Below, piece after piece: positions 1,486-58,615 of a stretch of DNA of 64,000 bases; within the stretch, counting starts at the first letter, position 1; the number at the start of each line of letters is the position of its first letter. This stretch comes from Promethearchaeota archaeon (GTDB lineage: Archaea; Asgardarchaeota; Lokiarchaeia; Sigyniarchaeales; SOKP01). The translations under genes were made by a program, and so were the position numbers. The stretch spans positions 256,001 through 320,000 of the forward strand of contig JAUVNS010000002.1 in NCBI GenBank assembly GCA_030599585.1. Reading direction: 5' to 3'. The notes under the pieces are model-generated. The model had not been told where the DNA came from. It ran no database searches and saw nothing but the letters and a program-made list of their open reading frames with translations.

Positions 1486-2043
1486 TTACTTTAAATTATT
1501 TAAAATTTGAATAGATAAACTTTCAAAAGCCAAATCAACATTTTCATTAAGTTTAGCAGATGTTTCAAAATATTGGATACCAAGTTTCTCTACTTCAGCT
1601 TCAATTAGCGAATTGTCTACATTTCTGTCTAAGTCTTTTTTATTTCCAACTAAAACATAAGGCACATCCCCGCTTAAATCTTTTAGCGTAGAAAGCCAAA
1701 AGTCAATATTTTGGAACGTTTGTAAATCGTTTAAGCTAAAAACAATCATAGCTCCAACAGCTTGAACAAAATAGTATTCTGTGCTGAAGAGCTTGTCCTC
1801 TTGACCTCCAATGTCCCAGAAAAACAATTTAAATCCCTTTTCCTTAATATCCTGCTTCAATTCAGGTTTTTCTAAGTCTAATTTATCAACTATCTTACTT
1901 AAATCAATTTCTTTTATCAGGAAATTAGCGCCTATCGTTGGCGTATAATCCTCGTGAAATTTACCATCTACGTATCGAGCTAATAACGAGGTTTTTCCGA
2001 CTGAGGGATTACCACAAAGTATAACTTTACCACGGTATGAAAT
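1486..2043 (-). CDS. Rab-like small GTPase (185 aa with proposed ATT start)
   Basis: G1 GNPSVGKTS and G2 YTPTIGANF lie in frame upstream of the track start (1860); G3 WDIGGQ, G4 GNKKD, G5 ETSAK; GGAGG at 2057-2053; no prenylation motif. Confidence 0.88.
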   Translation of the reverse strand: MSYRGKVILCGNPSVGKTSLLARYVDGKFHEDYTPTIGANFLIKEIDLSKIVDKLDLEKPELKQDIKEKGFKLFFWDIGGQEDKLFSTEYYFVQAVGAMIVFSLNDLQTFQNIDFWLSTLKDLSGDVPYVLVGNKKDLDRNVDNSLIEAEVEKLGIQYFETSAKLNENVDLAFESLSIQILNNLK

Positions 2044-2232
2044 TGCTATCAGCCTCCTCTAACTTTCACTAAAAAATTATAATACCACATAGTTTTTATC
2101 CCCTATGATTTTTTATCAATATGTTTATCATTAAACACTTTAATTTAAACTTAATTTTATTTTTGTTTTTCCGTTCTAATTCTATTAAACTAACGTAACC
2201 TTTGTTTGAGTATGCGATTTATTTAAAATAGA

Positions 2233-3087
2233 TTAAACTGGATATGGTACTTTTACTGGAGTTAACTTTATCTCTTTCGTTTCTGAGCTAATAAAGTGTC
2301 TAAATAAATGCTCGTAGCCTATTATTTGACTCTGCTTTCCGTTTTCCAACCATAAACCAGATGTGTATTCCGGAGCTTCTTTTACCTGATCTAAAGTAGT
2401 TAACAAAAATCCATAATCTGCGATTAACAATCCGAACGGAATGACGTTTTCACCCTCGATTGAATGGATCTTTACAGAAATTTTTAATAATTTCTTGATC
2501 TCTTCCTTAAGTTCTTCAAAGTATTTAAAGGCAATTACGATTTCCATATCTGATGAGAATTTCTTACTCCAGATTTCCTTTAATATCCACTCGTGACCTC
2601 CTAATTCTTTAATCAATAAATCAGGGGTCATTATGAAATATATTCTGTTTTGAGAAGTGCTAATTAAATCTTTTATTTTCTTTCTAATTTTATCCCTTGA
2701 ATTTATCGCCCATACCCTTGGCTCGACTTCTTCTTTATCAATTTCCAATTCAGCAATCGCTTTTTCGATCGTTATAGTATCGTCAATTTTTTTCTTGAAA
2801 TTGTCTCTAAGCGTTTTAAAAACCCGACTAATGGGGATCACTTGATAATTTGCACCCCTTTTTACTGGTTCTTTTTGGATAAACCCTTTTTCAATTAACC
2901 GATTAAGACTATCATATACCCTAGCACGGTCAACATCAGAAAATTTTGCTATATCTGCCGGACTCAATATTTTATATTTTGCAAGAGCTAACAAAACCTT
3001 TGAATCATTTTTCGTAAATCCTAATGACTGTAAGGCAAATTCAATATCAGATTCTTCAAGTTTTATGTTTTCGCGACTATACGACAA
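2233..3087 (-). CDS. TrmB-family transcriptional regulator / chromatin protein (wHTH + effector domain)
   Basis: LQSLGFTKNDSKVLLAL...PADIAKFSDVDRARVYDSLNRLIEKGFI is a typical TrmB HTH, followed by a coiled coil and a TrmB C-terminal domain. Confidence 0.85.
   Translation of the reverse strand: MSYSRENIKLEESDIEFALQSLGFTKNDSKVLLALAKYKILSPADIAKFSDVDRARVYDSLNRLIEKGFIQKEPVKRGANYQVIPISRVFKTLRDNFKKKIDDTITIEKAIAELEIDKEEVEPRVWAINSRDKIRKKIKDLISTSQNRIYFIMTPDLLIKELGGHEWILKEIWSKKFSSDMEIVIAFKYFEELKEEIKKLLKISVKIHSIEGENVIPFGLLIADYGFLLTTLDQVKEAPEYTSGLWLENGKQSQIIGYEHLFRHFISSETKEIKLTPVKVPYPV
2936..2966. repeat. 31-bp exact direct repeat, copy 1 (inside trmB HTH coding sequence)
   Basis: TCAGAAAATTTTGCTATATCTGCCGGACTCA is identical to 3472-3502. 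Confidence 0.95.
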
Positions 3088-3160
3088 GAGCTAAATCTTG
3101 ATCCTTTTTTATTCGTATTACATAACTAATTCTAAAACTGTTATTTTAATTTATACATTT

Positions 3161-3178
3161 AAAAAAAAAAAAAAAAAA
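3161..3178. repeat. A18 homopolymer tract upstream of trmB
   Basis: 18 consecutive A. Confidence 0.9.
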
Positions 3179-3471
3179 TAATCGCAAATAAATTAGTAAA
3201 ACTCCAATAGAGGCGAATTGACAAAATTCTTTAATAAAATAGCCGTCAAAGTTTAAGAAACGCTTGTGTAAAATTCAAGTGTCAATATTATAATAAAAAC
3301 CGAGTTTCATTTTTTTCATTATATTAAAACTTTAATAATGGTTTTATTTTTTGCGTAAAAAATAGGCGAATTATGTGAGAATGACTTTCGAGTGAATTTT
3401 AACAATCAAAGATTTTTTATTTCCTATTTAATAAAAAATAAAAATTTTATTCAAAAGGGGTATTTTGTCGC

Positions 3472-56888: not shown

Positions 56889-57096
56889 TGCATAATTCTC
56901 CTTGTGTTATTTTGTTAGTTCCTCCAATAATTTTACGCTAATTATTATACATGAAATATTTTATTCTAATTTAAAATAACGATTAAAAAAATTAACTTTA
57001 AATCAGTATTCTTTTATATATCTTTTATTATTGATGGAATTAAAAATATTCGATTAAATCAAATTTAAATAGATTTTCCACGGTTATTACTTTAAG

Positions 57097-57510
57097 ATGC
57101 TATTTACTTTTTTACAGATGGGAACTCCTTCAATAGATGAACTACTCCCATTTATCATTATGGGCGCGTTCGCTGCAGGAGATATATTGTTATTAAAGTT
57201 AGCATTAGTGGTAACTAAAGCCCAGAAAAGAACACGGATGAAATGGGTTGCGGGAAGTTTTGCTATTCAATTTGGAATAATTTTTATTATTAGTTCTCCC
57301 TTGTTTTTGCAAGCTTTTATGGGTTCATTTAAAGGAGAACTTGATGTAATAATTCCTATCGTTATCCTTTCATTATTTATAGATCTCAACGTGATAAACG
57401 TCTTACATCAAGTAGGTCTAAAGCGTTCATTTGGCATTCTTTTGATTACTTTCGTTCCTATAATTATCGTAATGATTATATTAGGAAACACATTTGCACG
57501 AATGCCATAG
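57097..57510 (+). CDS. hypothetical 4-TM membrane protein
   Basis: Four hydrophobic segments. Confidence 0.7.
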   Translation: MLFTFLQMGTPSIDELLPFIIMGAFAAGDILLLKLALVVTKAQKRTRMKWVAGSFAIQFGIIFIISSPLFLQAFMGSFKGELDVIIPIVILSLFIDLNVINVLHQVGLKRSFGILLITFVPIIIVMIILGNTFARMP

Positions 57511-57524
57511 AATCAATATGTGAC

Positions 57525-58442
57525 TCATAAATTAATTTCTTTGTTGATTTGCTGGTTCATGGCTATTACTTCTTCTCTTGCGGCCTCACCAAATTTATGT
57601 GGTAATAGCCTTTTATAATGGTAAGAAAACATTATTCTCCTTGAAGAATTTACAATACCACCTAAACCATTACTATTAAATCCAACCTTAATTTCTTTCG
57701 CAATACCGCCTTGCGCGCCAAAGCCAGGAATTAAAACATACGAATTTTTCACAATACTTCTTATCGATTTTAACTCTTGTGGGAAAGTTGCGCCTACTAC
57801 TACGCCTAAATTATGAAATTGTGAAAATTGGGTTAAATTTTCTCCCCAATCTACTACGAGTCGAGCCATTTTTATATAATTCCTTTCTAGGGTTACATTT
57901 TCTACGTTGACTTCTATATCAGATTCTAAAGCATTTGGAATTCTGGCACTAAAAAGGTTCTGGAAATCTTTGCTACTAGGATTCGAAGTCTTAACAAGAA
58001 CGAATATTCCTTTTTCTTTATATTCTAAAAAAGGTTTAACTCCGTCAATTCCAAGGTACGCGTTTATAGTACACGCATCTGCATTATATACTTTAAATGT
58101 GGAATGGGCGTAAGCTTCTGAAGTCGCCCCAATATCGTTTCTTTTTGAGTCTAAAATGACGAGCAAATCTTTCTTGTGAGCATACTTTATGGTTTCTTTT
58201 AAGGCAGATAATGCATCATATTTCTCATAAAATGCAATTTGGGGCTTAACAACTGGGATTAAATCTGATGTATTATCAATTAATATTTTATTAAATTCAA
58301 GAATGACCTTGTTTGGGTCTTCAAATTCTTTAATAAGGAATTTTGGAATTTCCCCTTCCTTATCCATCCGGGGATCTAAACCCATGCATACAACACTATG
58401 TTTATCAATGATAGATTGGATTAGGTCTTCAATAAAATTCAT
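57525..58442 (-). CDS. pyrF: orotidine 5'-phosphate decarboxylase (type 2)
   Basis: CMGLDP, KPQIAFYE, LDSKRNDIGAT, KTSNP, VVGAT, LIPGFGAQGG, NSSR. Confidence 0.93.
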   Translation of the reverse strand: MNFIEDLIQSIIDKHSVVCMGLDPRMDKEGEIPKFLIKEFEDPNKVILEFNKILIDNTSDLIPVVKPQIAFYEKYDALSALKETIKYAHKKDLLVILDSKRNDIGATSEAYAHSTFKVYNADACTINAYLGIDGVKPFLEYKEKGIFVLVKTSNPSSKDFQNLFSARIPNALESDIEVNVENVTLERNYIKMARLVVDWGENLTQFSQFHNLGVVVGATFPQELKSIRSIVKNSYVLIPGFGAQGGIAKEIKVGFNSNGLGGIVNSSRRIMFSYHYKRLLPHKFGEAAREEVIAMNQQINKEINL

Positions 58443-58615
58443 AACTCTTGTCCTTTAAAGTTTTTATACTGATCTTTTACCTCATCAATATCTAGGGTTA
58501 TAAGAGTGTGTCCTCTATGATTTGCTTCAAAAACCCTTAAAAGATTCTGATTTTCTGGATCATTTGGATAAATATGTACATATTCTTGACACTTTATACA
58601 TGCTCGAACCCTAAT
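58439..58615 (-). CDS. small Zn-binding protein (CxxC...HxxH), proposed ATT start
   Basis: GAGGTG-TTAAAA-ATT AGG GTT CGA GCA TGT gives (M)RVRACIKC..HRGH; stop overlaps the pyrF start. Confidence 0.65.
   Translation of the reverse strand: MRVRACIKCQEYVHIYPNDPENQNLLRVFEANHRGHTLITLDIDEVKDQYKNFKGQEL

Follow-up and report, generated by a model that had tools for sequence, protein, structure and literature searches.

In bacteria, near-cognate start codons led by a Shine-Dalgarno (SD) sequence are known but rare, and a single ATT start in Asgard archaea has been inferred in print (PMC13394414). The bacterial cases use AUU or AUA, require an SD sequence and are conserved among orthologs; they include infC and pcnB in Escherichia coli and infC (AUA), cvfC1 (AUU), ccpN and citZ (both AUA) in Staphylococcus aureus (bioRxiv 10.1101/063800, PMC13009471, PMC4705826). 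The Asgard case is the tubulin Kari AtubA, where ATT follows a likely ribosome-binding site and the database entry lacks the first beta strand. It was presented as one "rare" case; a genome-wide rate, the codon spectrum, covariation with the SD sequence and a link to the initiation factor aIF1 were not part of that report (PMC13394414). Here, a window of 64,000 nucleotides (nt) from a Promethearchaeota archaeon of the class Lokiarchaeia (contig JAUVNS010000002.1, positions 256,001 to 320,000; host genome 4.85 Mb, 32.6% GC) is analyzed, in which an earlier note, made from the sequence alone, had described recurrent ATT starts. The codons, the need for an SD sequence and the conservation among orthologs are the same as in bacteria. 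The frequency is different. Judging from sequence models, it is most likely that roughly one in fourteen genes in this genome starts at ATT, ATA, ATC, ACG or CTG, nearly always after a ribosome-binding site. This corresponds to about 100 to 290 genes, compared with two that are confirmed in E. coli and four that are confirmed in S. aureus. The literature search, which covered few subscription journals, found no report on genome-wide near-cognate use in Asgard archaea or on the aIF1 start.

All positions below are those of the window. Six proposed ATT codons are in frame, in intact open reading frames (ORFs), at 2043 (-), 26243 (+), 43328 (-), 58615 (-), 37796 (-) and 62623 (-). Five of them, with their SD sequences, are as follows.

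1486-2043, minus strand: Rab/Ras-family small GTPase, 185 amino acids (aa), start ATT 2043 (Pfam Ras, 2e-37)
2053-2057, minus strand: SD sequence GGAGG, 9 nt 5' of the Rab ATT
26243-27175, plus strand: Rag/Gtr1-like small GTPase, 310 aa, start ATT 26243 (Pfam Gtr1_RagA, 8e-24)
26232-26236, plus strand: SD sequence GGTGA, 6 nt 5' of the Rag ATT; the in-frame stop is the TGA of this motif
36618-37796, minus strand: Zn-ribbon-containing protein, 392 aa, start ATT 37796 immediately after an in-frame TGA (weak Zn_ribbon_3)
37803-37809, minus strand: mismatched SD sequence GAGTTGG (a variant of GAGGTGA), 6 nt 5' of ATT 37796, conserved in orthologs
41946-43328, minus strand: leucine-rich repeat (LRR) protein, 460 aa, start ATT 43328 (Pfam LRR_8)
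43335-43339, minus strand: SD sequence GAGGT, 6 nt 5' of the LRR ATT
58439-58615, minus strand: small Cys-rich protein (small Zn), 58 aa, start ATT 58615, alternative upstream ATG 58666 (no Pfam family)
58622-58627, minus strand: SD sequence GAGGTG, 6 nt 5' of ATT 58615

In the Rab, Rag, LRR and Zn-ribbon genes, the stretch from the upstream stop to ATT contains no canonical codon. The first canonical codon downstream is codon 62 in the Rab gene (TTG 1860), codon 7 in the Rag gene (ATG 26261), codon 18 in the LRR gene (ATG 43277) and codon 75 in the Zn-ribbon gene (GTG 37574). A start at these codons removes the P-loop of Rab and beta1 of Rag. The small Zn gene has an in-frame ATG (58666) and GTG (58624) upstream of ATT, the latter within the SD sequence. 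The gene labels in the earlier note were right for Ras, Gtr1_RagA and LRR, but the Pfam search gave no longin match for the 37796 gene, no HEAT match for the 43328 gene and no family for the 58615 gene. Only the two GTPases are clear eukaryotic signature proteins (ESPs) by Pfam.

The alignment of orthologs, a check named in the earlier note, showed that ATT swaps with ATG in the Rab, Rag, LRR and small Zn genes. The homologous first codon of Rab is ATT in 12, ATA in 3 and ATG in 8 of 23 genomes. (The window Rab shares 72% identity with that of Ca. Lokiarchaeum GC14_75.) The Rag orthologs begin with ATT (7), ATC (1), ACG (1, uncertain), ATG (11) or TTG (1). The LRR orthologs have ATT in 17 genomes, and 12 genomes that are more distant have ATG at roughly this position; the downstream ATG at codon 18 is Ile in close orthologs. 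The small Zn homologs, paralogs included, have ATT (7), ATA (4), GTT (1), GTG (1) or ATG (14) at the same codon, and the upstream ATG of the host genome is unconserved. The Zn-ribbon gene is near-cognate in nearly all orthologs: among 14 aligned sequences, there are eight ATT, five ATC and one ATA, and none has an upstream canonical codon. In a further ortholog group, compared by eye, ATT lies two codons past TAA, and one genome has ATG there. In many orthologs, an in-frame stop lies only 0-4 codons before this position and leaves no other possible start.

An SD sequence of at least 4 nt precedes all 52 near-cognate starts but only 10 of the 45 ATG starts among the orthologs of the four toggling genes; the sites compared were chosen by homology and not by their SD sequence, but the relatives are not independent. 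The neighbour-gene swap matrix covered only 15 genes. On each of the GTPase trees, the start switched between canonical and near-cognate at least four times, and well-supported branches force three switches on one tree and two on the other. A dedicated control layer, one of the options in the earlier note, is not supported for the window genes, whose starts flip in this way. Two-mismatch codons, GTT in a small Zn ortholog and GTA in family f4, were also observed at the start position; they may initiate as well, or an upstream GTG may be used.

In principle, such a pattern could come from errors in the assembly, from pseudogenes or from reinitiation that is coupled to a stop upstream. There is one real error in the window: at 40411, the assembly has one extra base relative to all four runs, which splits the DNA ligase gene into two ORFs (40170-40427+ and 40408-41928+). 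This split is an assembly error, not a pseudogene. It gave a false call of an ATA start at 40438, which was rejected. The ATT sites are different. The contigs of run X1 show no differences across 26243, 37796 and 43328, and thus neither ATG nor an indel there. Since X1 may be the source sample of the window, the ortholog set is the stronger argument against sequence error: the same codon is found in up to 17 independent genomes, with the frames intact. Essential single-copy genes are affected, and starts within 15 nt of the upstream stop are no more frequent in near-cognate genes (11.9%) than in ATG genes (11.3%), with no excess of coupling. For the five window genes, the artefact explanation is largely refuted by the ortholog data, and in general it is scarcely credible. 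The five ATT codons can be taken as true starts with high confidence, slightly lower for the small Zn gene, based on the DNA and its orthologs.

Genome-wide start usage was estimated by annotation-free expectation-maximization (EM) with all 64 codons free and uniform initial values. The result was ATG 74.1%, TTG 10.7%, GTG 4.0%, ATT 4.0%, ATA 2.0%, ATC 1.0%, ACG 0.6% and CTG 0.6%, with every other codon below 0.45%. The top five non-canonical codons are all among the seven neighbours of AUG (chance 4.6e-6). Position-weight EM was too noisy on 400-kb samples, and a model with an explicit SD sequence and spacer was substituted. Applied to 3926 ORFs, this SD-spacer model assigns near-cognate starts to 7.5% of genes and ATT to 3.5%, lower than the one gene in ten first proposed. 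In its SD class, the usage is ATG 69.2%, TTG 13.5%, ATT 5.0%, GTG 4.9%, ATA 2.7%, ATC 1.35%, ACG 0.7% and CTG 0.7%, and the next codon has 0.34%. The spacer mode is 5-6 nt past GGTGA. The strict floor is 96 near-cognate genes (ATT 52, ATA 18, ATC 12, ACG 8 and CTG 6), and the model total reaches 290. Like infC, pcnB and cvfC1, the window genes combine an in-frame one-mismatch codon, an SD sequence at the usual spacing with a matching anti-SD, homology to a canonical start and the lack of another usable canonical codon, but starts of this kind are not rare in the host genome.

A count of orphan SD sequences, made independently of any model, leads to the same conclusion. Of the ORFs that have a 5-nt SD sequence near the upstream stop, 56 lack a canonical codon up to codon 15. 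An in-frame near-cognate codon lies at a spacer of 4-9 nt in 42 of them, while two sets of control spacers give 9 and 17 (p = 4e-10 and 4e-6); for ATT alone, the counts are 21 against 2 and 5. Decoy codon sets of similar abundance improve the model by at most 2.3 log-likelihood units, against 6-28 for the near-cognates. A simple count of codons by distance from the SD sequence shows only a weak ATT bump. The start spectrum tracks codon abundance in gene bodies (4.8/3.2/1.8/0.7/0.4). ATT is thus not special; it is the commonest near-cognate because the genome is AT-rich and the spectrum follows codon abundance.

The SD sequence becomes stronger with weaker start codons: at least five SD matches are present, over the whole genome, in 18% of ATG, 38% of TTG, 42% of GTG and 68% of near-cognate genes and in 3% of shuffles; the value of 68% is partly circular, the starts being called by the model. 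The full anti-SD, GATCACCTCC, is intact at the 3' end of the 16S rRNA. A 2026 review described SD sequences as rare in Lokiarchaea (PMC12993045). This fits the ATG genes and not the near-cognate class. As the models and orphan-SD counts suggest, start-codon selection is very probably permissive throughout this genome, in line with the relaxed selection proposed earlier.

The near-cognate set is not concentrated in signalling genes. The GTPase, LRR and longin-like genes outside the window (n = 123), to which the class test was limited, have a mean near-cognate posterior of 0.070 against 0.075 genome-wide (p = 0.58). Among 63 N-terminal small GTPases, five have no canonical codon before the P-loop, which equals the genome rate (binomial p = 0.81); their starts are ATT (two, both in the window), ATA, ATC and CTG. 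The near-cognate genes are functionally mixed, and essential genes are among them. uS4 starts at ATC, and its alignment begins from residue 1 of the solved archaeal uS4. RadA (ATT), GatB (CTG), PheT (ATA), DnaG and Rubisco, all named by reading their N-termini, are also near-cognate. The apparent enrichment of ESPs in the earlier note is best explained by ascertainment, since a missing start stands out in proteins with P-loops or Zn ribbons. Control directed at ESPs is highly unlikely.

A broader version of this idea is that the near-cognate genes form a selected regulon, switched together when the level of aIF1 or of the ternary complex changes. Three observations agree with it: aIF1 lacks ATG in all 13 family members examined, the LRR and Zn-ribbon genes retain near-cognates across many genomes, and ccpN of S. 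aureus responds to the medium through its non-canonical start (PMC13009471). Against these stand the absence of ESP enrichment, the repeated toggling of the Rab, Rag and small Zn genes to ATG, the composition-driven codon spectrum and the mixed functions of the members. Such a regulon is unlikely.

The reading preferred here is SD-anchored initiation of low stringency. Pairing of the SD sequence (GGTGA or GAGG core, spacer 4-9 nt) with the anti-SD would anchor the 30S subunit and place the P site. The ordinary Met-tRNAi with anticodon CAU would then accept a one-mismatch codon, not only TTG and GTG but also ATT, ATA, ATC, ACG or CTG. A strong SD sequence would compensate for the weak codon, and ATG genes could dispense with it. 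In most genes, the five of the window included, the start would drift between ATG and near-cognates with base composition, irrespective of gene class. This whole reading, with a possible feedback on aIF1 described below, is fairly likely. The sequence shows the position, conservation, SD dependence and frequency of these starts and the start codon of aIF1; initiation with Met at these codons is what we infer. A near-cognate start would probably reduce output; the known sites yield 10-30% of AUG output in S. aureus (PMC13009471) and 1-2% in E. coli (bioRxiv 10.1101/063800). In the host genome, the efficiency should be substantial, because uS4 uses ATC.

Table 11 of NCBI and the ATN starts of animal mitochondria cover the same codon set (ATT, ATC, ATA and CTG in table 11), and some NCBI entries already begin at Ile positions. 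Table 11 treats these initiators as rare and does not include ACG. Animal mitochondria have no SD sequence and use a modified tRNA-Met. In the host genome, the SD sequence is nearly obligatory for near-cognate starts, and the initiator tRNA is standard, with A1, three G-C pairs, the CAU anticodon and an intron. A second initiator tRNA or a modified anticodon reading AUH as in animal mitochondria, or editing of the codon to AUG in mRNA, would offer another explanation, as neither tRNA modification nor RNA editing is readable from DNA. However, the edits would have to differ among five codons, whose mismatches fall at all three positions, and no initiator-like arm with another anticodon was found in a genome search that is incomplete because of intron-split tRNAs. 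This explanation is very improbable.

The gene for aIF1/SUI1 (G000:C3, about 26020) itself starts at ATT, four codons past a stop, and has no canonical codon before the Zn knuckle. All 13 members examined from the Lokiarchaeia family of the host have a near-cognate start (ATT 11, ATC 1 and ATA 1), one of them with an in-frame GTG in the SD region. In six other Asgard families, the start is ATA or CTG; in ten, it is ATG or GTG. In TACK archaea, it is ATG or TTG in 30 of 30 loci (the best-scoring 30 of 80). The start of aIF1 does not revert inside the family, unlike those of Rab and Rag, which points to selection on it. A regulatory role of this start is plausible. The genes for aIF1A, aIF2-beta and aIF2-gamma start at ATG. 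The Pfam score of aIF1 is low (56 bits against up to 86) and is non-diagnostic. A fidelity lesion in aIF1, suggested in the earlier note as a place to look, was rejected, as loop 1 and the Zn knuckle are kept. The aIF2-gamma gene (G000:C9, about 122720-124310, plus strand) has a long N-terminal extension, which opens with an apparent helix-hairpin-helix segment (RadA/L21e-like by eye) and continues to a Lys/Pro-rich linker before the G domain.

Fidelity-factor genes with such starts are found on both sides of the comparison, infC in bacteria and aIF1 here; the factors are IF3 and IF2 in the former and aIF1 and aIF2 in the latter, and most cases in the host genome toggle with ATG. The AUU start of infC serves feedback, and Sulfolobus aIF1 rejects AUU in vitro (PMC4705826, PMC6237735). 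Eukaryotic eIF1, the ortholog of aIF1, also has a deliberately weak initiation site and is autoregulated through an AUG in poor context (PMC6237735, discussion). In eIF1, the context around AUG is weakened; in aIF1 here, the codon itself is non-AUG after an SD-like motif. These three precedents make feedback of aIF1 on its own synthesis a natural hypothesis. The conserved near-cognate start would close an infC-like negative loop that sets the permissiveness; the chances for and against this feedback appear about equal, based on analogy. More tentatively, autorepression of aIF1 in Lokiarchaeia and several other Asgard families might hold stringency low enough for about 7% of genes, among them ribosomal and repair genes, to be tuned together by the aIF1 level. 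If so, the aIF1 loop would link the feedback of bacterial infC (AUU) and that of eukaryotic eIF1 (poor context), a link not found in the literature searched. The conserved non-AUG start of aIF1 offers a direct test of fidelity feedback in archaea.

Near-cognate starts, which the earlier note linked to this lineage, are not confined to it. Other lineages were compared with the SD-spacer model in samples of 175-390 genes each, as the share of the SD class, with no euryarchaeon among them. The host genome shows 8-19% in eight 200-kb samples. The Asgard families f5 and f7 show 6.1% and 5.3%, and two TACK genomes show 3.2% and 5.4% (log-likelihood gains of 6-7, decoys at most 1). The Acinetobacter control shows 1.2-1.7%, no better than decoys. 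Clear-looking CTG, ATA and ACG starts after GGTGA were observed in the TACK genomes.

It is possible, then, that nothing is specific to the lineage: archaea led by SD sequences might generally start 3-6% of their genes at near-cognates, with the host genome at the upper end and ATT dominant from AT-richness. The TACK and Asgard values above and the similar orphan-SD counts in TACK and an Odin-like genome agree with this. So do the Ribo-seq data of Haloferax volcanii, where archaeal ribosomes were found at near-cognate codons and about 30% of putative alternative starts were near-cognate; these sites were set aside as possible false positives and are not the main starts of conserved genes (PMC7261190). 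On the other hand, all eight host samples, equal in size, exceed both TACK values, and none of the 30 TACK loci has a near-cognate aIF1 start. This explanation is somewhat less likely than not, and it alters the scope and not the mechanism. The trait looks archaeal and strongest in the host genome.

Several points weigh against SD-anchored initiation of low stringency as proposed here. The percentages rest on a model of this study, which detects near-cognates only with an SD sequence, so that cases lacking it are missed. The indel at 40411 shows that the assembly is not free of errors. The basic loop 1 and the Zn knuckle of aIF1 are intact, and the permissiveness is not explained by a lesion at its fidelity site. 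Small samples are noisy: in that of family f2 (G032), the value changes from 2.9% to 10.6% with the minimum ORF length that is set. The Odin-like genome (family f5) has about 6% near-cognates despite an ATG-started aIF1, and feedback is therefore unnecessary for the trait.

Starts of this kind affect annotation. The database homologs of Rab include full forms of 185 aa and forms of 154-179 aa that begin inside beta1, within the P-loop or past it, as was foreseen for gene callers. Some 100-300 genes per Lokiarchaeia genome are probably mis-started. Because of truncated entries, Asgard proteins can appear incomplete or without catalytic activity, and cloning can be misled, as happened with Kari AtubA. 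The pattern also bears on when AUG stringency arose, and it suggests a trade-off between SD pairing and codon strength.

Other features of the window connected with start sites are as follows.

60413-62623, minus strand: hisS with an N-terminal extension of about 300 aa; start candidates ATT 62623, GTA 62620 and TTG 62572
18622-20010, plus strand: major facilitator superfamily (MFS) transporter, candidate ACG start after GTGA (model posterior 0.89, Pfam MFS_2)
3950-4474, minus strand: HIT-family gene, weaker candidate ATA 4474, alternative GTG 4483 (near-cognate posterior 0.71, Pfam HIT)
3644-3874, plus strand: histone-like gene, canonical control with GGAGG, 8 nt and ATG

The hisS gene, listed earlier as a weaker sixth ATT case, was not confirmed as one: the spacer of ATT 62623 is only 3 nt, which is atypical, the model favours TTG 62572 (0.48), and the N-terminal 198 aa have no ortholog among 25 genomes of the genus. 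Its extension has no paralog in the host genome. In the MFS transporter, an in-frame GTG (18613) and ATG (18616) overlap the SD sequence. Of the two canonical spacing controls, the histone gene was confirmed at 3644, while vhuD was not recovered by the scan.

An intron-containing tRNA gene lies at 27335-27438 on the minus strand (contig 283335-283438), where it separates the Rag gene from the next ORF, and loose ends of other contigs fall at 27342 and 27381. ARAGORN lists tRNA-SeC in the host genome, as well as tRNA-Pyl (CTA) and two tRNA-Phe(AAA); the Pyl and Phe calls are tentative and may be intron-related miscalls. At about 56700-56860 on the minus strand, the frame upstream of ORF 56265-56684 keeps its similarity to HdrA across two in-frame TGA codons, both at Cys-like positions, and it probably belongs to a selenoprotein.

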